Assembly: GCA_036556085.1 (NCBI GenBank)
Contig: DATBKE010000116.1
Location: forward strand, 2,209 to 66,208
Direction: 5' to 3'
Length of the DNA: 64,000 bases
Source of the DNA: Acidimicrobiia bacterium
Lineage (GTDB): Bacteria > Actinomycetota > Acidimicrobiia > Spongiisociales > ZC4RG35
In this document: piece by piece, positions 41,501 through 51,248 of the stretch
Layout: every line of letters begins with the position of its first letter
How positions within the stretch are numbered: the first letter of the stretch is position 1
Notes under the pieces: model-generated
What the model was told of the DNA's origin: nothing
The model's database searches: none
The model's input: only the letters and a program-made list of their open reading frames with translations
Translations under genes and position numbers: made by a program

Positions 41501-43339
41501 TCATTCTGCCTTCTGTTTGCCCGTCTCGCCTTCGATACCGAGCGTGGTCTCGACCGCCTCGATGGTCTGCCCCCCTTTTGCCACCGGGGCAAAGAGATCT
41601 CCGAACCGGGCGAGGCGGTCCCAGAAGTTGCCGATGTTGAAATCACCGTTGCGGAGGGTGTCGACCTCTTTCCAGGTGATCGGAAAGGAGATCGGAGCTC
41701 CGGGTCGTGGGCGAACCGAGTAGACCGAGGCGATGGTCTGACCGTAGGCGTTGCGGTTGTGGTCGATGAAGACCTTGCCTTTGCGTTTGGGGATGTCCCA
41801 CTCCATGGTGAGATCAGCGGGGTTGGCAGCGACGAGGAGCTTGCCGATTGCTTCCACCAGCCGCCTTACGCGCGAGTGTCGATACTTGGCCTCGATCGGC
41901 ACGTAGACGTGAAGCCCTTTGGAACCGGAGAGCTTGGGATATCCATTCAGGCCCAGTCGGCCGAGCAGTACTTCGAGGAGCTTCGCTCCGGCCACGACCT
42001 GTTCCCACTCCGCCCCTTCGGCTGGATCGAAATCAAAGATCGCTAGATCGGGATGTTCGAGGTTCCCGGCCCGGGAGTGGAAGGGGTGGATCTCGATGCA
42101 GCCCATGTTGGCGAACCACATCAGCGACTCCCGGTTGGAGGCGAGCAGAAAGTCCTGAGCTCCCCCCGACGAGTCCGACGGCACCGCCGCCGTCTCCATC
42201 CAGGCGGGCTGATGTCCGGGTGCCCGCTTCTCGTAAAAGGTCGGACCATTGATGCCGTCCGGATATCGGGACATGGAAATGGGTCGGTCGCGCAAGTGAG
42301 GCAACAACACTGACGACACCGAGGCGTAGTACTGAATGAGATCGCCCTTGGTGAAGCCCTCGGGGAAGAAGGGCTTGTCAAGGTTCGAGAGCTTGAGCGG
42401 ACGGACTCCGGGAACGAGAAGGTTCTTACCGTCCTTCTTCCCCCTGACCTTGGCCGGGAAATCGATCCGGCCGGAGTCGATGTTTCGTCCTTCGCTCTTG
42501 CTGCTCGGTCCCTTGCTGATCGTTTCCTCGAGCTCGTTTTGGATGGCATCGTGGCTTGATTGCTCTCGCGCCTCGGAGATCACCACCATCGACAGCTCGT
42601 CGTGGAGGGCGGCCTCGATCAGCGGTCCGATCCGGAGGGTGCCTTCGCCGTAGGGGAGGTGTCTCACTTCCCCACCGGCGTTGAAGAGGTTGTCGGTGAA
42701 TTGGGTTTGCAGCGGGTCGATCATCCAGCCGGGAAAGCTCCCGCGAATGAAGCCGATAACCGATTCGAATGCTTCGACGCTGGTGAGGGCTCCGCCGGTC
42801 TGGGCGTGGACGTGAGCCCAGTCGACGATCGGCCGGATGAAGCTGAACTCGTCGGCCAGAAGGGCGATATCACCGAGGGTTCCGAAGTTCCGCTCGGCCC
42901 CGCTCGTCTCGAGCCCGAGACCGACCCCCATCTGCTCGATCTTGGGGCTGATCCTTCGCAGTCGCTCCTGGATCATTCCGGTCAACACTTCGGGGTCGCG
43001 GCCCTGGGCGGCACCGAAGTGGGCGCAGATGATGCGACTGCCGAGAGCCCGGCCCAGCTTCATCGTGTGCTCGAGGGCGGCCAGGCATTGTTTCGCCCTG
43101 TCCTCGTCTTCGACGGTGAGTACGGCGAAGTAGGGAGCGTGGACAGATACCCAGATGTCGCGCTCTCGGGCGAGATCGCCGAACCGTTGACATCGCTTCT
43201 CCTTCCAGGGGAAGGCGGTGACGAAGGCGAGCTCGAAAGCGTTGTGGCCCTTCTTGACGAGATCGTCGAGGAACGCGGCGTCGTCTTCCGGTTTGCCGCG
43301 TGGAAGGCCCGAGATCCCGAAGCGAATCTGGGCCGGCAT
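41501..43339 (-). CDS. fusion protein: endonuclease IV-like AP_endonuc_2 TIM barrel + LigD-type primase-polymerase (AEP) domain
   Basis: 612 aa. N-terminal part has SVHAPYF, ICAHFGA, GLETSG, DWAHVHAQTGG, VRHLPYGEGTL, VVISEA. C-terminal part has KLSNLDKPFFPEG, AIFDFDP, SGSKGLHVYVP, FIDHNRNAYGQT. Confidence 0.9.
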   Translation of the reverse strand: MPAQIRFGISGLPRGKPEDDAAFLDDLVKKGHNAFELAFVTAFPWKEKRCQRFGDLARERDIWVSVHAPYFAVLTVEDEDRAKQCLAALEHTMKLGRALGSRIICAHFGAAQGRDPEVLTGMIQERLRRISPKIEQMGVGLGLETSGAERNFGTLGDIALLADEFSFIRPIVDWAHVHAQTGGALTSVEAFESVIGFIRGSFPGWMIDPLQTQFTDNLFNAGGEVRHLPYGEGTLRIGPLIEAALHDELSMVVISEAREQSSHDAIQNELEETISKGPSSKSEGRNIDSGRIDFPAKVRGKKDGKNLLVPGVRPLKLSNLDKPFFPEGFTKGDLIQYYASVSSVLLPHLRDRPISMSRYPDGINGPTFYEKRAPGHQPAWMETAAVPSDSSGGAQDFLLASNRESLMWFANMGCIEIHPFHSRAGNLEHPDLAIFDFDPAEGAEWEQVVAGAKLLEVLLGRLGLNGYPKLSGSKGLHVYVPIEAKYRHSRVRRLVEAIGKLLVAANPADLTMEWDIPKRKGKVFIDHNRNAYGQTIASVYSVRPRPGAPISFPITWKEVDTLRNGDFNIGNFWDRLARFGDLFAPVAKGGQTIEAVETTLGIEGETGKQKAE

Positions 43340-43629: not shown

Positions 43630-44097
43630 ATGCCCGCCGTCACCAAGAGTCCGGCGCTGCGAGCGTTTTGGCGGCTTCACCGGTTCCTGCTCCGAATCAG
43701 CAATGGCCGCTTCTTCACCCGGCTCGGGCCGGGACGCCAGTTGCTGTTGACCACCAGAGGACGTAAATCTGGCGAGCCGAGGCAAGTAGGCCTTACCTAC
43801 CTGGCCGATGGTGATTGGTGGGTAGTGATCGCCTCCAATGCCGGGGAGGACTCGAACCCGGCCTGGTGGCTGAATCTTCTCGCCGAGCCAACAGCCACGG
43901 TGACAGTCGGTGGCGAAACCATCCCGGTCACTGCTCGTGAACTGGAAGAGCCCGAGCGCTCATCGTTCCTCTCTCGCTTTGTTTCAGAGATCGACGCCAG
44001 CTACGCCGAATACCAGCGGCGAACGGCGCGCAGACTCCCTGTGATAGCGCTAGGCCGTGCGGCGGCTGCGAGTCCAGAAGGCGGTTCCCACAAGTAG
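43630..44097 (+). CDS. deazaflavin (F420H2)-dependent nitroreductase family (Ddn-like, split beta-barrel)
   Basis: 155 aa: LLLTTRGRKSGEPRQVGLTYLADGDWWVVIASNAGEDSNPAWWLNL. Confidence 0.85.
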   Translation: MPAVTKSPALRAFWRLHRFLLRISNGRFFTRLGPGRQLLLTTRGRKSGEPRQVGLTYLADGDWWVVIASNAGEDSNPAWWLNLLAEPTATVTVGGETIPVTARELEEPERSSFLSRFVSEIDASYAEYQRRTARRLPVIALGRAAAASPEGGSHK

Positions 44098-44334
44098 GAG
44101 TAGCGAAGCTGCCAACGGAATCGGCCCTGAGCCGAAAATAACCAAGACGCCGTAGAAGACGCTGAGCACCGACACCATCCACAGCGGGACAGTCGCTTCC
44201 CGAATCGCGTAGAACAGTGACAGGCCCGCAAAAGCAGCGAAGAAGAAGCCGCTGCTTTGGCCGGTCGCTATTCCGACTCCGATCAACAAGGCGGCCGGAA
44301 TCGCGATGAGCCAAAACCGGTTGTCCCAATGCAA
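44050..44334 (-). CDS. possible small 3-TM membrane protein
   Basis: The hydrophobic C-terminal 94 aa of track ORF 44050-44490 (the N-terminal part is the complement of tRNA-Lys). TTG 44334. Has a 48-nt convergent overlap with the Ddn-like gene. Confidence 0.3.
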   Translation of the reverse strand: MHWDNRFWLIAIPAALLIGVGIATGQSSGFFFAAFAGLSLFYAIREATVPLWMVSVLSVFYGVLVIFGSGPIPLAASLLLLVGTAFWTRSRRTA

Positions 44335-44406
44335 CGTCGCCGAACCTACTCGCCGGCAGTGAGCGAGCCGGTGTCGGATGACTTTGCTGGCTGGTTCAAT
44401 AGAGGC

Positions 44407-44480
44407 GGGCCCGTAGCTCAAGCAGGCAGAGCAGGGGACTTTTAATCCCAAGGTTGAGAGTTCGATTCTCTCCGGGCCCA
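44407..44480 (+). tRNA. tRNA-Lys (anticodon TTT)
   Basis: Hand-folded cloverleaf: acceptor GGGCCCG/CGGGCCC, D stem GCTC/GAGC, anticodon loop CTTTTAA, T arm GAGAG-TTCGATT-CTCTC, discriminator A. CCA is not encoded. Confidence 0.9.
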
Positions 44481-44519
44481 CCGGACACAAATCAATGCTG
44501 ACGGGAACCGCTTGTCATT

Positions 44520-44777
44520 GTGGATAATGGCGGAAGCACACGGAGGTCCTCGATGCAGACCAGCTCCATTCCCTCCGCCCCAGATGCCCAATCCCCTGCA
44601 GGAGCGGAAGTCCGGTATCTGGTGGAAGGCCCAACCGGCAACATGATCCACTCCACCGTCCCGCCCGGTCAGGCCAATAGGGCAACCGTCCACGCCACAG
44701 TGAGCGAGTTCTGGCACGTTCTGTCTGGCGAGGGCCAGATTTGGCGGCGAGGGGAACCGACCGCTCCTGAAGGCTGA
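44520..44777 (+). CDS. cupin-like small ORF, possibly truncated
   Basis: 85 aa. EVRYLVEGPTG...HATVSEFWHVLSGEGQIWRRGE looks like the first half of a cupin barrel, and the ORF ends where the second half would be expected. Confidence 0.35.
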   Translation: MDNGGSTRRSSMQTSSIPSAPDAQSPAGAEVRYLVEGPTGNMIHSTVPPGQANRATVHATVSEFWHVLSGEGQIWRRGEPTAPEG

Positions 44778-44857
44778 CTCCAGACGTCGCCCTGCGTAGA
44801 TCCGCCTCACGACACCAACGAACACCGCGTCGTACGCTGCGACTGAGAGGAGAAGAA

Positions 44858-45445
44858 ATGGCCGATCCGGTGGACGACATCATCGGGGACTACCGAGGGT
44901 TCGCGGCACAGCAGCACCACCGGCTGCTCGCCCGGGGTATCGACATCCGGCCATACTCGCTCAGCCACCTGGCATACCGCGTGCCAGAGTGGGACCAGTA
45001 CATCCACCTGCGCACGCTGCTCGAACGCCACGCCAGCTCGAACGTCGAAAACGTTTGGAACGGTCGGCCGATCTCATTGATCCTTCTTGCCACCCCGCTC
45101 GAGGTCCTCGAGGGAATGAGCGTGCCGCTGATCGAACTCATCCCACCGGTCCACCAGCGCGTCTACAAGATGGGCCTCGAGCATCTCGGAGTGGTCATTG
45201 GGGAGGAGGTGGATGCCTTCTCGAGGGAGCATCGCGACGTCTTAACCGGTCAGCAGTTCCAGAACGAGCACAACGAGCCCTACTACGTCCTCTTTGAGGA
45301 CTTCACCCACGTGAAGTTCCACCGCCGTCCGCTGCACGACGTCCTCGTCCTCCAGGGAGCCACATTCGATGGAATCGTCCATGTCGATGACTGGGTCCCA
45401 CAGCGCCTCGTAACGGCTACCGGCCCACACCCTCTGCCGCGGTGA
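44858..45445 (+). CDS. YecM-like VOC-fold metal-binding protein
   Basis: 195 aa: SHLAYRVPEWDQY...NGRPISLILLATPL...LIELIPP...GLEHLGVVIG. Confidence 0.6.
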   Translation: MADPVDDIIGDYRGFAAQQHHRLLARGIDIRPYSLSHLAYRVPEWDQYIHLRTLLERHASSNVENVWNGRPISLILLATPLEVLEGMSVPLIELIPPVHQRVYKMGLEHLGVVIGEEVDAFSREHRDVLTGQQFQNEHNEPYYVLFEDFTHVKFHRRPLHDVLVLQGATFDGIVHVDDWVPQRLVTATGPHPLPR

Positions 45446-45463
45446 GCGTGAGAGTACGCCCTA

Positions 45464-45503
45464 TTCAAGTCATTTGACTATTTAGTCAACTTGAACATAA
45501 CCT
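45464..45503 (+). promoter_or_regulatory. AT-rich imperfect palindrome (candidate ArsR operator) overlapping -35/-10-like hexamers
   Basis: TTCAAGT-catt-TGAC-tattta-GTCA-ACTTGAA (45464-45495). TTGACT at 45474-45479, then TAACCT at 45498-45503 after an 18-bp spacer. GTG start at 45510, 6 nt after the -10, suggests a leaderless transcript. Confidence 0.4.
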
Positions 45504-45509
45504 GGCAGG

Positions 45510-46085
45510 GTGCGCCGGGTGCTGGCTCTTGAGTCTCGGGAACAGATCGAGCTGCTTGGGGACGACCTCAAGCTGGCCATCCTCGAACAGGCGATCCGTC
45601 CCACGACCGTGTCCGCGATGGCGGTCGCACTCGGAGTTCCCCGGACTCGGCTTTATCACCACGTCAAGCGCTTGTTGGACAACGACCTGTTGCGGGTCGT
45701 CAAGCAGCGCCAGGTGGGACCGGTTGTTGAGAGTCAGTATCAAGCGACTGCGGTCAACTACCGGGTGTCGAAGCGGCTCCTCGAATCCCTGTCCATATCC
45801 GAAGTCGGGGCTGTCCTCGTCTCCTTGGTATTCGGCCCGGCCAAGGCGGAGTTCGTCACGGCATTGCAAGACGGCCTGTTCTCATTGATGGACTCAAAAC
45901 GCCGGCGGGAAGTCCAAGTCGCCCGGCATCACATGATGCTGACTCCCGCCGAGCTGAACCAACTCATTGGAGAACTCGAGGAGCTTTACGCCCGCTACGA
46001 CCCCGATCCGCAGATCGAGCGGGAGGGAACGATCCCGGTGGCGGCTGTGAGCGTCGTCCATCCCCGCCGTAGCAGATCGGGGTGA
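45510..46085 (+). CDS. ArsR-family (wHTH) transcriptional regulator
   Basis: 191 aa: LKLAILEQAIRPTTVSAMAVALGVPRTRLYHHVKRLLDNDLLRV. GTGA overlap with the MFS gene. Confidence 0.8.
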   Translation: MRRVLALESREQIELLGDDLKLAILEQAIRPTTVSAMAVALGVPRTRLYHHVKRLLDNDLLRVVKQRQVGPVVESQYQATAVNYRVSKRLLESLSISEVGAVLVSLVFGPAKAEFVTALQDGLFSLMDSKRRREVQVARHHMMLTPAELNQLIGELEELYARYDPDPQIEREGTIPVAAVSVVHPRRSRSG

Positions 46086-47323
46086 GGACGCTCCTCGCCA
46101 ATGTTGGATTCCGGCGACTGTGGATGTCCCACGTCATTTCCACTTTTGGAGACTCAGTGACTGCCTTGGCTCTCCTCCTGACCGCTCAGCGGCTCACCGG
46201 CTCGACCGCAGCCGTGGCTACCACTGCCATCGCCATCGCTCTTCCTCAGCTCCTGTTCGGGCTCTTCTCCGGAGTGTTGGTCGACCGCTGGGACCGTCGG
46301 CGGATCATGGTCTCTTCAGACCTGGTGCGAGCTGGCCTGGTCCTCGGTTTCGTTGCGATCAACTCGGCCGACCTGATGTGGCTCCTGTATTTCATTGCGT
46401 TCGTCCAGGCCACAGTCGGCACACTCGACAACCCAGCTCGGTCGGCGGTGCTTCCTCAGATCGTCGGGGAATCGACTGACCAGTCACCTTCCGGCTCCAA
46501 CCTATTGGCGGCCAACTCGCTGTTTCAAAGCAGCGCGATCGTGGCCGGGGTACTGGGAACCGCCACCGCCGGTCTCGTTGCCGGGCTCGCCTCCACCATG
46601 ACTCCGCTCTTCGTCCTCGACGCAGTTACTTATGTCGTGTCGTCGACCCTGGTAGCCAAGCTCGTCATTGAGAAGAGGGCGGCGACCGACTTGGGCCAAC
46701 CGGCCAAACGGATCTGGTCCGAGCTGCGCTCGGGACTCCGTTTGGTCACATCCTCGAGATCACTGAGGACTGTTCTGGTGGGTGCCGGAGTCGTGATGCT
46801 CGGTCTCGGTGCGGTCAACGTGCTTCTAGTGCCATTCATCGTCAACGAACTTGCCGTGCCTGAGACCTGGTTCGGCTTGCTTGAGGCCGCCCAGGTTTCA
46901 TCGATGGTTCTGGCCGGCCTATTGGTGGCGTCCATCGGCAAACGAATTCGCCCGGGGACATTGCTTCCGGTCGGACTAACGGGAATCGCCGTGTTCGTGA
47001 CGGCCATGAGCCTCGCCTCCAGCGTCTGGCATCTGATCGTCCTTCTATTTGCCGTGGGCTGGTTCGTATCGCCGACCCAAGGTGCCGTCTCGACGATCAT
47101 CCAGAGCGAAGTCCCGGCCGCATCGCTTGGCAGGGTCAGCTCCAGCCTGGGAACCGTGGTGACCACCGCTCAGGTCGTCTCCATGGCCCTGGCCGGAGTT
47201 GCGGCGGAGCTGCTCGGTCTGCGGACGGTGTTCGTCATCGCCGGTGGTATCACTCTCTTGTCCGCTGCTCTCACCTACCTCGGACAACGAACGTCGCAGG
47301 ATTTGGTCGCCGCCGCTAACTAG
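46082..47323 (+). CDS. MFS transporter (EntS/MFS_3-like)
   Basis: 413 aa with about 12 TM helices and the VLVDRWDRRRIM loop motif. Confidence 0.85.
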   Translation: MRTLLANVGFRRLWMSHVISTFGDSVTALALLLTAQRLTGSTAAVATTAIAIALPQLLFGLFSGVLVDRWDRRRIMVSSDLVRAGLVLGFVAINSADLMWLLYFIAFVQATVGTLDNPARSAVLPQIVGESTDQSPSGSNLLAANSLFQSSAIVAGVLGTATAGLVAGLASTMTPLFVLDAVTYVVSSTLVAKLVIEKRAATDLGQPAKRIWSELRSGLRLVTSSRSLRTVLVGAGVVMLGLGAVNVLLVPFIVNELAVPETWFGLLEAAQVSSMVLAGLLVASIGKRIRPGTLLPVGLTGIAVFVTAMSLASSVWHLIVLLFAVGWFVSPTQGAVSTIIQSEVPAASLGRVSSSLGTVVTTAQVVSMALAGVAAELLGLRTVFVIAGGITLLSAALTYLGQRTSQDLVAAAN

Positions 47324-47621
47324 TCCCCGGGGTTGGATCGAATACGGGCCTCCGGGAACCCAGCCCAAACGGCCGATGGTGGGGAATGGACCGATTCAAA
47401 GAGCTTTGCAGGGGCTTTCAACGGAAGCTGCTCGGCCAAGGAAACGCCAGCCACTACGGGGACCTGGCTTGGGTGGTCCGACCGGAATTGGCGACAAGCA
47501 TTCCCCGGCGCGCGTGGCGCGAGGAGCTTGACCGAATCGCGGTCACCACCCTCGGCGACCAAGTGTTGATCGACAGCTAGCCCACTGCCGATCCGAGCAA
47601 TTCTTCTTATCCTCTCGGGTC

Positions 47622-47981
47622 GTGAATGAGCAAGTCGAACTAACTCTTCAGCTGGTTGAAGCCACCGACGCCGAGACGCTCGATCGAGCTACGCAGAGCC
47701 TGCGTCGCGATCTGAATGAGATCGACTTGGTGCAGGCACGCCCCACCGATACCGCCAGCGTCCCCGGGGCCAAGGGAGACCTCAACCTTCTGGGAACCCT
47801 TTCGGTCACCATGGTGAGCGCAGCGATTCCACACGTAATAGCCCTCATTAGCCGATGGCTTAGTGATCGGGGACGTTGCGTGGTTCGAATTGACAAGCCC
47901 GACGGCACTTCACTCGAGATCCAGCACAGCCTGAAGAAAGACGAGATCGAGCGTATCGTCGCCAGCCTTGTCCCCAAGTAA
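47622..47981 (+). CDS. EACC1-like protein (effector-associated constant component 1)
   Basis: 119 aa: VELTLQLVEATDAETLDRATQSLRRDLNEIDLV...PGAKGD...VTMVSAAIPHVIALISRWL...VVRIDKPDGTSLEIQ. Sits immediately upstream (3-nt gap) of a caspase gene. Confidence 0.7.
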   Translation: MNEQVELTLQLVEATDAETLDRATQSLRRDLNEIDLVQARPTDTASVPGAKGDLNLLGTLSVTMVSAAIPHVIALISRWLSDRGRCVVRIDKPDGTSLEIQHSLKKDEIERIVASLVPK

Positions 47982-47984
47982 GAC

Positions 47985-49547
47985 ATGACCAGCACCCCTC
48001 GCCGGCTGGCTTTGGTGATCGCCACAACCGAATACGACGACAGCCGGCTGCTCCGCTTGGGAGCGCCTTTGGCCGACGCCCTCGAATTGGCCCGGACTCT
48101 GAAGGAGCACGGTGACTTCGACGTCGAAACGCTGATCAATGCCGAGGCGCAAACGGTCCAGAGACGCATTGAGCGCTTCTGCAAAGCGGGACGGCAGAGC
48201 GCCGACACCATCCTCGTCTACTTCACCGGACACGGAGTCAAAGATGATGACGGCAACCTTTACTTTGCTCTTCGTGACACGGACCGCGACCTATTGAGGA
48301 CGACCGCTGTCTCCGCCGAATTGTTGGCGGCGGTGATGGACGAGAGCCCTGCCCGTTCCCAGCTCCTGATGCTCGACTGCTGCTACTCCGGCGCTTATGC
48401 CCGTGCGCTGCGCCCCAAAGGCGAAGAAGACGCCGGGCTCGGTGACCAGTTCGCCTCTTCCCCGGCAGCTCGGGGTCGGGTGGTGCTGGCGGCCTCGGGA
48501 GCCATCGAGCAAGCGTGGGAGGAAGACGCCGGTTCCATCTACACCCGAGCAGTGGTGGACGGGATACGGACCGGCCGCGCCGACCTCGACGGCGATGGCC
48601 GCATCACCGCCAGCGAACTCCACGCCCACGTCAGCGAGAATCTCCGAAGCGAAGGGCGGCAGACTCCGCGCAAGTTCGAATTCGACGATGCCGGGAGCCT
48701 GCTGGTCGCCCGTCGGGGTGAGGCGCCACCAATCGTTCCGAGCATGCCCGCCGCAAAGAGAGCAAAGCGACCCGCGGTCCGAGAAAGGCAGATCACTCCC
48801 TCAAATCGAAAGGCTCCGGCCTGGATCCCTGGGATGATGGCGGTGGCCCTCGCCGCGGTGCTCGGAACCCTGTGGCTGAGCGGAGGGATTGGCTTCCTTC
48901 CTTCGCCCTTGATCGAGGTCACCACCACGGCCGCCGTAGTGGTGCCACCACCTCCAACTGCCGTTGCATCGGCGACCACAGTCAGCACCGCAGTTGAGTG
49001 GCAGGTAGCGATCGACGAGCAGTTCACCGTTAACGACCGGGAATGGGCCGAGGGCGATTTCGGCGACACCTCCGCTGACTGGTTCTTCCGATTCGTCGGG
49101 GGAACGTACGAGGGGGGTTTCACCACAGGGACGTCCGATCTGACTTACTACAGCACGGTTCCGTTTACTCCCGAATCGAGGCCCTTGTACATCGAAACTG
49201 AAACCACGAGCTATTCGGCAGGCAGCCAATGCGGAATTGCGTTGCAAAACGCGGATGGATCGCTGACGGCAGTAGGAATAGGCAGTGGCGAGGTCGTCGC
49301 CCGTCATCATGTTGAGAACGAGATCGCCAATTCCGGGTCGTGGCCGGTACCTTTAGCAGGACCAACTGAGACCCAACTAGGGCTTTGGATCGACGGGTCA
49401 ATTGTCACGATCTATATCGATGACCGCGAGCTGGCGAGCTTCGATGAGCCTTCGCTCACAGACATCTCCGCGATTGGAGTCGGCCTGATCGGTGGGACCG
49501 ACGTGTATTGCGGGTTCGATTACATCGTCGCTCAAGAAGGTGACTGA
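47985..49547 (+). CDS. caspase-family (C14) peptidase with TM helix and extracytoplasmic beta-rich (ConA/LamG-like) domain
   Basis: 520 aa. RRLALVIATTEYDD, His in ILVYFTGHG, Cys in LLMLDCCYSGAYA. K/R-rich segment, then TM AWIPGMMAVALAAVLGTLWLSGGIGFL, then a C-terminal domain of about 200 aa. Confidence 0.85.
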   Translation: MTSTPRRLALVIATTEYDDSRLLRLGAPLADALELARTLKEHGDFDVETLINAEAQTVQRRIERFCKAGRQSADTILVYFTGHGVKDDDGNLYFALRDTDRDLLRTTAVSAELLAAVMDESPARSQLLMLDCCYSGAYARALRPKGEEDAGLGDQFASSPAARGRVVLAASGAIEQAWEEDAGSIYTRAVVDGIRTGRADLDGDGRITASELHAHVSENLRSEGRQTPRKFEFDDAGSLLVARRGEAPPIVPSMPAAKRAKRPAVRERQITPSNRKAPAWIPGMMAVALAAVLGTLWLSGGIGFLPSPLIEVTTTAAVVVPPPPTAVASATTVSTAVEWQVAIDEQFTVNDREWAEGDFGDTSADWFFRFVGGTYEGGFTTGTSDLTYYSTVPFTPESRPLYIETETTSYSAGSQCGIALQNADGSLTAVGIGSGEVVARHHVENEIANSGSWPVPLAGPTETQLGLWIDGSIVTIYIDDRELASFDEPSLTDISAIGVGLIGGTDVYCGFDYIVAQEGD

Positions 49548-50301
49548 CAACCTCGCCGCCGCGGCTGAAGTGTTGAAGGGAGCACTTCCGATCCTGGCTT
49601 TCACCGGAGCTGGGATCTCAACCGAGTCGGGCATCCCCGACTTCCGCGGCCCTAACGGCCTCTGGACCAAGATGGATCCGGCCGATTTCACCATCGAGAA
49701 GTATCTGGCCGATCCCGAGCGGCGGAAGCGAGGATGGAGGATGCACGCCGAGGGATCGCTGTGGGGAGCACGGGCGACCCTGACTCCAAACGCCGCTCAC
49801 CTCGCCCTGGTCGACCTCTATCGAGATCAGCGTCTCGTCGGTTGCGTCACGCAGAACGTCGACGGCCTCCACCTCCAAGCTGGTCTTCCCGAGGAAGCGG
49901 TTGCCGAAGTGCATGGCCACGTTCGCGCCGTTCGTTGCTACGACTGCGGGCTCACCTGGCCCACCGAGGAAATCCTGGTGCGGGTTGATCAAGGTGAGGA
50001 GGAGCCGCGGTGTGAGATCTGCAGAGGGGTCATCAAAACCACCACCGTTATGTTCGGCGAGAATCTCCCACAGGCAATCGTCGATAAGGCTTGGGCGCTT
50101 GCCTCCCGGGCTCGATCGGTCCTCGCCATTGGCACCACCCTCGGGGTGTGGCCGGCGGCGGAGATTCCCTTTTCCATGGTTCAGTCCGGAAAGCCCCTGG
50201 TAATCGTCAACGAGGGCGAGACCGAGATGGATCGCCTGGCGACCGTCCGACTCGAGGGAAAGGCGGGGGCGACGGTGAGCGAGTTGGCCAGGAGCATTTA
50301 A
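49540..50301 (+). CDS. Sir2-family NAD-dependent protein deacylase
   Basis: GTG 49540 overlaps the caspase 3' end by 8 nt. FTGAGISTESGIPDFRG, TQNVDGLH, catalytic EVHG, and Zn ribbon CYDC...CEIC. Confidence 0.9.
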   Translation: MTDNLAAAAEVLKGALPILAFTGAGISTESGIPDFRGPNGLWTKMDPADFTIEKYLADPERRKRGWRMHAEGSLWGARATLTPNAAHLALVDLYRDQRLVGCVTQNVDGLHLQAGLPEEAVAEVHGHVRAVRCYDCGLTWPTEEILVRVDQGEEEPRCEICRGVIKTTTVMFGENLPQAIVDKAWALASRARSVLAIGTTLGVWPAAEIPFSMVQSGKPLVIVNEGETEMDRLATVRLEGKAGATVSELARSI

Positions 50302-50303
50302 CG

Positions 50304-51248
50304 GTGAAGCTGATTCCTTTGGAGCAAGAAATGCTCCCCGCCCTTTACGACCTTTATCGCCGGATCGAGATCTTCGACCAGATCCCGATCGTCACCCCTT
50401 GGGAGGAGATCGCCGAGATGGCAGACGATCCCCATCTCGACCTACCCAACGACGGTCGCCTGGCTCTGATCGACGACCAGGTCGTGGGCTTCTGCCACGT
50501 CATCCGTCGGCCGGGAGAGTCCGATCATGCCCGCGCCTTCCTCGTCGGCGGGGTTGACCCCGACTATCGCCGGCAAGGCATCGGCAGCGCGCTGCTTTCC
50601 TGGGAGATGGATCGGGGGGCACAGATATTGCGCCGGGAGTCGCCCCACGTTCCCCGCTTCCTCCGCACCTTTGCCTTCGACTTCGAACAGGCCGCCATCG
50701 CCCTCTATGAGCGCCATGGGCTTACTCCGATTCGGTCCTTCGCCGAGCTGATCCGGCCCCTGCATGAGCCTGTACCCACAAGACCAGTTCCAGGCATCGA
50801 CATCGTCAGCTGGGAGGACGGACGTTATGAAGAGGCTCGGCTGCTGCTGAACCTGGCCTTCCGCGACCATTGGGGTTCGACTCCCCGCGACGGCGCTGCC
50901 TGGGACCATTTCATCAGAGGCACTGGCACCCGTCTCGATCTTTCGTGCATGGCGCTGGCCGGCGATCGCCTGGTTGGCGTGACGGTCAATGCTCATTTCC
51001 CATCCGACCAGGAGATCACCGGGCGCCGAGATGGCTGGATCGGTCATCTCGGCACCCACCCCGAATTCCGCAAGCGCGGGATCGCTTCGGCTCTGATCGA
51101 GCGGTCTTGCGCTCAATTCAGTGAGGCTGGCTTCGACCACGCCCTGATCGGCGTCGACTCCGCCAGCCTCACCGGTGCCTATCGCCTATACGAAAGTCTC
51201 GGCTTCCGACCGCTGCATCGACAGGTGCAGCATCAGATCGAGGTCTAA
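50304..51248 (+). CDS. tandem-GNAT N-acetyltransferase (MshD/mycothiol-synthase-like architecture)
   Basis: GTG 50304, 2 nt after the Sir2 stop. 314 aa with two GNAT cores (VDPDYRRQGIGSALL and THPEFRKRGIASALI). Confidence 0.8.
   Translation: MKLIPLEQEMLPALYDLYRRIEIFDQIPIVTPWEEIAEMADDPHLDLPNDGRLALIDDQVVGFCHVIRRPGESDHARAFLVGGVDPDYRRQGIGSALLSWEMDRGAQILRRESPHVPRFLRTFAFDFEQAAIALYERHGLTPIRSFAELIRPLHEPVPTRPVPGIDIVSWEDGRYEEARLLLNLAFRDHWGSTPRDGAAWDHFIRGTGTRLDLSCMALAGDRLVGVTVNAHFPSDQEITGRRDGWIGHLGTHPEFRKRGIASALIERSCAQFSEAGFDHALIGVDSASLTGAYRLYESLGFRPLHRQVQHQIEV

Follow-up and report, generated by a model that had tools for sequence, protein, structure and literature searches.

A probable EACC1-caspase death module with a predicted extracytoplasmic jelly-roll domain in Acidimicrobiia

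Introduction

What would a membrane-anchored bacterial caspase respond to, and which protein would do the killing once it is switched on? The question is raised by two adjacent genes in a 64,000-nucleotide stretch from an Acidimicrobiia bacterium (GenBank assembly GCA_036556085.1, contig DATBKE010000116.1, positions 2,209 to 66,208; this whole stretch is called the window below), which encode a small protein of the EACC1 family (effector-associated constant component 1) and a caspase that continues through a transmembrane (TM) helix into a jelly-roll domain. An original prediction, made from the sequence of the window, saw here a surface-gated intracellular protease leading to cell death, and the analysis that follows supports this general idea. 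We consider it probable that the pair forms a self-contained two-gene death module, in which the caspase would be activated from outside in and would cleave EACC1, with pore formation as the result.

Two earlier studies frame the question. [quoted passage not shown] Evans et al. (2025; bioRxiv 10.1101/2025.11.14.688446) have since reported that the KrAvs12 caspase of Ktedonobacter racemifer cuts KrEACC1 near Asp49 into fragments of 5.7 and 7.1 kDa, that the C-terminal fragment alone is toxic, that only cleaved EACC1 causes liposome leakage, and that the uncleaved protein is an autoinhibited monomer. These experiments make EACC1 the death effector and the caspase protein its sensor and activator, so that the original prediction, which had cast the caspase as effector and had held EACC1 to be experimentally uncharacterised, has the roles reversed on the first count and is outdated on the second.

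An intact EACC1-caspase gene pair

The pair consists of two genes:
47622..47981, + strand: EACC1 gene (GTG start, 119 aa plus stop), a predicted latent pore-forming toxin
47985..49547, + strand: EACC1-type caspase gene with membrane anchor and ectodomain (ATG start, 520 aa)

Both open reading frames (ORFs) have the coordinates and lengths given in the original prediction, with EACC1 in the 5' position and 3 nt between its stop and the caspase start, and the family assignments made there are borne out as well. The 119-aa protein matches the Pfam family PF19953 (EACC1) over residues 21-116 with 28.1 bits, above the gathering threshold (GA) of 23.6 (E 2e-6), and a precomputed match to the same family exists for most clusters of its orthologues. 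The 520-aa protein matches PF00656 (Peptidase_C14) with E 1.7e-18 and 67.6 bits against a cut-off of 21.4, and exceeds the cut-off of NCBIfam NF047832, 'caspase, EACC1-associated type' (149.9 against 140 bits). Its protease features are:
48000..48719, + strand: caspase (C14) domain, residues 6-245 (PF00656, NF047832, dyad)
48231-48233 and 48381-48383, + strand: codons of His83 and Cys133, the catalytic dyad

The predicted dyad aligns as expected, His83 (FTGHG) and Cys133 (LDCCYSG) falling on the GHG histidine and the LDMC cysteine of the MALT1 paracaspase, and both residues are unchanged in all 18 full-length orthologues compared, which are 50-65% identical to the window protein.

The locus is thus an intact, normal member of the known EACC1-caspase two-gene system. 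It shares with System 4 the gene order, the lack of a nucleoside triphosphatase (NTPase), membrane association, an actinobacterial host and a variable region C-terminal to the caspase. It differs in its DUF1080/PF06439-like ectodomain of concanavalin A (ConA) fold, a type unnamed in the main text of that paper, and in its Acidimicrobiia host, where the pair is mostly fixed between hemW and lepA. The original prediction had assigned EACC1 pairs to NTP-dependent systems and regarded the missing NTPase as unusual, but Kaur et al. defined a self-contained, NTPase-free pair (PMC7159879); since EACC1 plus caspase was described as a stand-alone system, the absence is normal. The components of NTP-dependent STAND and vWA-MoxR systems are lacking: a search limited to the 520-aa protein, the neighbouring genes and the window's ten largest ORFs found no STAND, AAA+/MoxR or vWA component, and for this part the predicted absence of such genes from the window stands.

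It had also been suggested that this copy might be decayed, if homologues always lay beside an NTPase. The neighbourhood comparison found the opposite, with no STAND, AAA+ or vWA gene adjoining the pair in about 12 homologous loci examined, orthologous or distant. That the pair is a decayed STAND or vWA-MoxR system without its former NTPase is hardly credible, given that both window genes are intact, that the caspase domain retains a mean pairwise identity of 79% across the 18 orthologues with its dyad invariant, and that System 4 was defined with two genes from the outset (PMC7159879).

EACC1 as a predicted latent toxin

Three parts of the EACC1 gene matter for the question of which protein kills:
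47622..47780, + strand: residues 1-53, acidic beta1-alpha1-beta2, predicted autoinhibitory fragment (model; 5.8 kDa, pI 4.3)
47766..47780, + strand: exposed-loop motif G49-A-K51-G52-D53, region of predicted caspase cleavage (invariant residues, low model confidence)
47781..47978, + strand: residues 54-119, hydrophobic segment, beta-hairpin and helix, predicted toxic pore-forming fragment (7.3 kDa, pI 9.1)

The AlphaFold2 model of the protein (predicted local distance difference test score, pLDDT, 80.7; predicted TM-score, pTM, 0.74) runs beta1-alpha1-beta2, a low-confidence loop, and beta3-alpha2-beta4-beta5-alpha3, the N-terminal elements being strand 4-13, helix 17-31 and strand 37-41. The loop, with pLDDT below 50 at residues 47-53, carries G49, K51, G52 and D53, which are invariant across 14 EACC1 orthologues (mean pairwise identity within the clade 61%) and stand directly before the hydrophobic segment; distant Streptomyces-type EACC1 proteins retain GAKG(A)D or GAKVAD. 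As modelled, the protein matches the described autoinhibited monomer bearing a cleavable linker. On the Kyte-Doolittle scale the hydrophobic peak reaches 1.7-2.1 at residues ~55-78 and is kept in all orthologues. Together with the flanking alpha and beta elements of the model, this corresponds to EACC1 as characterised by Kaur et al. (PMC7159879), with a single conserved hydrophobic helix, small residues and short alpha+beta extensions. A Foldseek search with the model gave no significant match, the best Protein Data Bank (PDB) hits (E ~1e-3, TM-score ~0.4) being generic alpha/beta (ferredoxin-like) folds.

The Ktedonobacter system is alike in several respects. In both, the gene immediately upstream of a caspase with an LDCC active-site motif encodes EACC1, and a predicted cleavable linker just precedes the hydrophobic segment. 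A cut at Asp53 would, by computation, yield fragments of 5.8 kDa (pI 4.3) and 7.3 kDa (pI 9.1), compared with the 5.7 and 7.1 kDa of KrEACC1. The sensors differ: phage tail connector proteins are detected by KrAvs12, a STAND (Avs) ATPase of the cytosol, whereas the window protein has a TM helix, an external domain and no NTPase.

Membrane topology

Between protease and jelly roll lie three short segments:
48720..48815, + strand: K/R-rich disordered juxtamembrane segment, residues 246-277, cytoplasmic side (pLDDT <50; K/R count)
48816..48899, + strand: single TM helix, residues ~278-305 (Kyte-Doolittle value 1.9 over 19 residues; model helix 281-298)
48900..48995, + strand: Thr/Ala/Val/Pro-rich linker, residues 306-337, predicted wall-spanning spacer (composition, pLDDT <50)

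Kyte-Doolittle scanning located one hydrophobic segment in the 520-aa protein, which is also present in all 18 orthologues; in the same scan no second segment, nor any N-terminal signal-like one, reached TM-like hydrophobicity. An AlphaFold2 model of the full protein, built on the orthologue alignment, places a helix at residues 281-298. The window protein has five Lys or Arg in the 25 residues before the helix and none after it, and every one of the 18 orthologues is biased in the same way (3-8 before, 0-1 after). The linker has a T+S+A+P+V fraction of 0.91, and the linkers of orthologues are 17-60 residues long. In the jelly roll itself, Cys416 and Cys509, invariant in the clade, co-vary over 186 copies of the domain (29 C/C, 2 C/other, 1 other/C), which is what a disulfide-bonded pair in an exported domain would be expected to show.

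The charge bias, the absence of any other TM-like segment, the cytosolic substrate, the Thr/Pro-rich linker and the cysteine co-variation, together with the position of the same domain after a signal or TM segment in most of 148 other proteins, are independent lines from which we infer that the caspase faces the cytoplasm and the jelly roll the exterior, in agreement with the original prediction.

The TM helix (APAWIPGM.AVALAA.LGTLWL.G) has a mean identity of 76%, close to that of the caspase (79%), while the segments flanking it stand at 30-45%; such conservation, at the level of sequence, hints at a role beyond anchoring.

The ectodomain

48996..49544, + strand: residues 338-520, ConA-like jelly roll on the extracytoplasmic side, divergent PF06439/DUF1080 relative (model, Foldseek, profile)

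The fold foreseen for this domain is well supported. Residues 339-519 are modelled by AlphaFold2 as all-beta, with 14 strands and block-mean pLDDT of 84-96, and Foldseek against the PDB returned ConA-like lectin and glucanase folds, including GH16, Bacillus subtilis YesU, galectins and CBM66 (probability 1.0, E 1e-8 to 1e-7, target-normalised TM-score 0.5-0.69). Family membership is harder to see by direct search: Pfam gave no match to the window ectodomain at E up to 10, weak Laminin_G matches and nothing else in 3 of 11 orthologue ectodomains, and a profile of the domain found nothing significant among PDB sequences. Run against 1.84 billion representative proteins, the same profile matched 260 proteins, and Pfam called PF06439 in seven of the ten remote matches scanned first and in several of the second ten. 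The best E to PF06439-annotated domains was 1e-27, and N...W...G and CG/YG signature columns are common to both. The ectodomain shares with PF06439 ('3-keto-disaccharide hydrolase', DUF1080) the jelly-roll fold and the signature columns, and differs from it in the lack of a direct Pfam match and of any sign of enzymatic activity. No GH16 ExDxxE motif is visible by eye in the sequence, and the acidic residues of its 'YIETETT' stretch vary among orthologues.

In the 148 other proteins analysed, the domain mostly follows a signal peptide or TM segment and often occurs in tandem copies. Cytoplasmic N-terminal partners elsewhere include Ser/Thr kinases, TIR, TIR-nSTAND1-WD40, TCAD9-nSTAND1, AAA_16-TPR, EAD7, CHAT and zinc ribbons. 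Examples with the domain after a TM helix are P0171-P0175, P0178, P0183, P0196, P0274 and P0289. Signalling and conflict systems appear to share the DUF1080-like ConA-fold domain as an extracytoplasmic module. Among the profile matches analysed, it is joined to a caspase in the Acidimicrobiia clade only, where its mean pairwise identity is 45%. The new part of the locus is this type of ectodomain, divergent and DUF1080/PF06439-like, on an EACC1-type caspase. The wider arrangement of caspase, TM helix and ectodomain is common: at least one TM-like segment follows the caspase in 93 of the 120 nearest caspase homologues, many of which continue into a large beta domain (WD40, YVTN or PQQ propellers) or a PBP domain.

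Placing the C-terminal domain outside the cell also bears on the model put forward in 2020 from comparative genomics (PMC7159879), in which a membrane-inserted EACC1 acts as sensor and switches the caspase on, and the caspase processes itself to release its C-terminal domain as effector. The conserved hydrophobic helix of EACC1, with its small residues, would suit such a sensor. Nevertheless, this model is very unlikely for the window pair: a domain beyond the TM helix is out of reach of a cytoplasmic protease for release, it bears no enzymatic signature, lacking GH16 ExDxxE and conservation of the residues concerned, and KrEACC1 has proved by experiment to be substrate and toxin (bioRxiv 10.1101/2025.11.14.688446).

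Homologous loci and genomic context

Neighbourhoods of homologous loci were obtained through exact-protein look-ups; scans of metagenome and genome contigs, which relied on a pattern-based prefilter, gave only 4 and 5 loci. Of the loci with upstream DNA, all 14 have an EACC1 orthologue as the gene immediately before the caspase, and the same order is found in L018, L019, L020 and L021, which include distant relatives of WD40 and PBP type. At least nine loci (L001 9654-11533, L012 5309-7394, L014 7134-9013 and L015 6377-8407, as well as L005, L007, L010, L013 and L016) have the pair inserted in one place, flanked by lepA-rpsT and by hemW(radical SAM)-hrcA-dnaJ-rsmE...phoH-ybeY and running on the opposite strand; there it splits an otherwise ancient gene string. 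The flanking core proteins at this site are only 62-97% identical, which, with the fixed position, points to long vertical retention.

The window copy (its own contig is L017) lies elsewhere, between MFS and Sir2 genes, and lepA, hemW, hrcA and dnaJ are absent from the window. Further copies adjoin a SpoIIE/HATPase_c_2 and a PolX gene, glycoamylase and sortase genes, or FtsX/ABC genes with an integrase 4.6 kb off. None of the neighbours of the window copy (F420 reductase, YecM, HTH, MFS, Sir2, GNAT, ACAD, LigD) was found in loci L001-L016.

This distribution raises the alternative that the pair is not primarily anti-phage and is instead a vertically inherited switch for programmed death or envelope stress in the Acidimicrobiia lineage, used, for example, in development, starvation or wall damage. 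In its favour are the recurrence of one site with conserved flanks, the lack of an integrase, att-like repeat or other defence gene near the window copy (by repeat check and among the ORFs scanned), and the stress-response roles that Evans et al. raised from EACC1-DnaK fusions (bioRxiv 10.1101/2025.11.14.688446). We regard it as rather unlikely all the same. The pair occurs in at least four other contexts, that of the window and the one near an integrase among them, and the GC content at third codon positions (GC3) of the window cassette, 0.66/0.71, falls below the 0.74-0.81 of its neighbours, which suggests mobility. The sole experimentally studied homologue is triggered by phage (bioRxiv 10.1101/2025.11.14.688446). 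Heat-shock co-regulation at the hemW-lepA site was considered and rejected: perfect CIRCE operators (TTAGCACTC-N9-GAGTGCTAA) stand directly upstream of hrcA in L005 (8394-8420) and L012 (4105-4131), away from the cassette, so that the heat-shock operon starts at hrcA, downstream of the radical-SAM gene.

Around the window copy itself, tRNA-Lys (44407-44482) lies 3.1 kb upstream of the pair, in line with the roughly 3 kb first noted. The leader and the EACC1 gene had both been described as AT-rich; the leader is not (GC 0.624 for 47324-47621, against 0.630 for the whole window), and the EACC1 gene is, mildly (GC 0.581, z -2.0), as is the part encoding the ectodomain (0.570). An origin as an island was rejected, there being no repeat of the tRNA-Lys 3' end nearby, no integrase among the scanned ORFs and only this mild dip in GC and GC3. 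A 64-aa ORF upstream of EACC1 (47386-47580) has no counterpart in any other locus, an Rfam scan of 44000-50500 matched the tRNA alone, no sigma-70-like promoter was found, and terminator-like sites are no commoner than in shuffled sequence.

Downstream, a Sir2-family gene (49540-50301, + strand) apparently starts with the GTG at 49540 and so overlaps the caspase stop by 8 nt (GTGACTGA), and a double-GNAT gene comes after it. Co-transcription of these genes with the cassette is possible, but no other locus has a Sir2 gene, so that the association is probably a coincidence. On the other side, immediately before the tRNA-Lys region, a single ORF (41501-43339, - strand) encodes an AP-endonuclease-2/xylose-isomerase-like TIM barrel joined to a LigD primase-polymerase domain. 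In L006 (9995-11640, contig CAWIXU010000006.1 of a metagenome-assembled genome) the caspase orthologue is split over several frames and EACC1 is intact, which looks like frameshifts, from long-read assembly errors or in a pseudogene.

An EF-hand-type loop and the nature of the trigger

48582..48617, + strand: EF-hand-type loop within the caspase domain, DLDGDGRITASE, residues 200-211 (pattern match, flanking helices)

Within the protease lies a loop of consensus DxDxDGxIxxxE, whose typical form among homologues is DLDGDGDITLDE. An EF-hand pattern of the PROSITE PS00018 type, applied to the first 340 residues of each homologue, was found in 120 of 120 caspase homologues whatever the C-terminal domain, and a stricter loop pattern in 118 of 120, nearly always near residue 200. 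In the AlphaFold2 model helices 185-196 and 209-222 flank the loop; the Pfam EF-hand_5 match of the caspase (E 9.6e-4, 19 bits) stays under its GA of 25.9. Metacaspases are Ca2+-dependent, and the conservation of the loop suggests that Ca2+ may regulate EACC1-type caspases.

It is conceivable, then, that EACC1 is cleaved as proposed above and that the ectodomain serves only to hold the protease at the wall or membrane, with an internal trigger such as a Ca2+ rise or membrane damage acting through the EF-hand loop or the TM helix. The presence of the loop irrespective of the C-terminal domain, the parallel with metacaspases, and a TM helix as conserved as the protease beside a far less conserved ectodomain all speak for it. 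Membrane-level sensing was itself proposed by Kaur et al. (PMC7159879), and calcium is mentioned in the main text of neither that paper nor Evans et al. We judge an internal trigger unlikely: the C-terminal region is hypervariable in the family, as for a specificity-determining sensor, the same ectodomain on kinases and TIR/STAND proteins forms typical receptor layouts, and the loop scores below the Pfam threshold.

Proposed mechanism

In the outside-in mechanism that we favour, the 520-aa protein would span the membrane once, its observed succession of caspase, Thr-rich stalk and ConA-fold domain being predicted to run from the cytoplasm to the exterior. Most likely, an envelope- or phage-derived ligand, probably a glycan, would act as the trigger by binding the ectodomain or clustering it, and this would bring the cytoplasmic caspase domains together and activate them. 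By analogy with KrEACC1, the active caspase would cut the co-translated EACC1 in the exposed, invariant G-A-K-G-D loop near residue 53. The cut would strip off the acidic N-terminal autoinhibitory part (~5.8 kDa) and free the basic C-terminal fragment (~7.3 kDa), which may then oligomerise into membrane pores, so that the cell would be killed or arrested. The outcome, on the same analogy, would be abortive infection or programmed death.

Several observations weigh against parts of this scheme. Arg/Lys-specific para- and metacaspases have an S1 aspartate at the position matching Asp131 of the LDCC motif, so that the P1 residue could be Lys51 rather than Asp53. The sequence of KrEACC1, taken from the supplementary table of Evans et al. 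and aligned to the window clade with hhalign, is detectably similar over the C-terminal half only (probability 70%), and its Asp49 aligns 3 residues downstream of Asp53; this offset falls inside the +/-3 tolerance given by the authors (bioRxiv 10.1101/2025.11.14.688446). A fixed site among housekeeping genes in many relatives is atypical of a phage-defence island, and the family-wide EF-hand loop suggests a cytoplasmic Ca2+ input that the scheme does not need.

The logic resembles that of caspase-gasdermin pathways, both the bacterial gasdermins and the eukaryotic death receptor-caspase-gasdermin axis, in that a protease of clan CD sets a pore former free by taking off its autoinhibitory part, and in that an outside-facing receptor domain is coupled to a caspase inside. 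In contrast, EACC1 has no sequence relation or significant structural match to gasdermin, and at the window locus receptor and caspase reside in a single polypeptide. A bolder reading, possible though doubtful, is that of a single-polypeptide bacterial 'death receptor', in which a lectin-fold glycan sensor, a caspase perhaps tuned by Ca2+ and the release of a pore toxin would form a vertically inherited core function of Acidimicrobiia rather than a mobile defence. The glycan signal might then be, for example, a kin signal, wall damage or the receptor-binding protein of a phage.

Significance

The sole experimentally studied EACC1 module is driven by a cytosolic STAND sensor, whereas about three quarters of the nearest homologues, the window protein included, carry a variable domain beyond a TM segment. 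With its four parts, a ConA-fold ectodomain, a single TM helix, a compact caspase and a 119-aa toxin precursor, this small NTPase-free module would be a tractable model for outside-in switching of a bacterial caspase, and would help to reveal the cues to which modules of this type respond, such as phage adsorption, wall damage or glycans. The same ectodomain occurs on kinases and on TIR, STAND and CHAT proteins, so that identifying the ligand of a single protein would be informative for many others. The family-wide EF-hand loop and the fixed location between hemW and lepA are testable leads on regulation and on roles outside defence.

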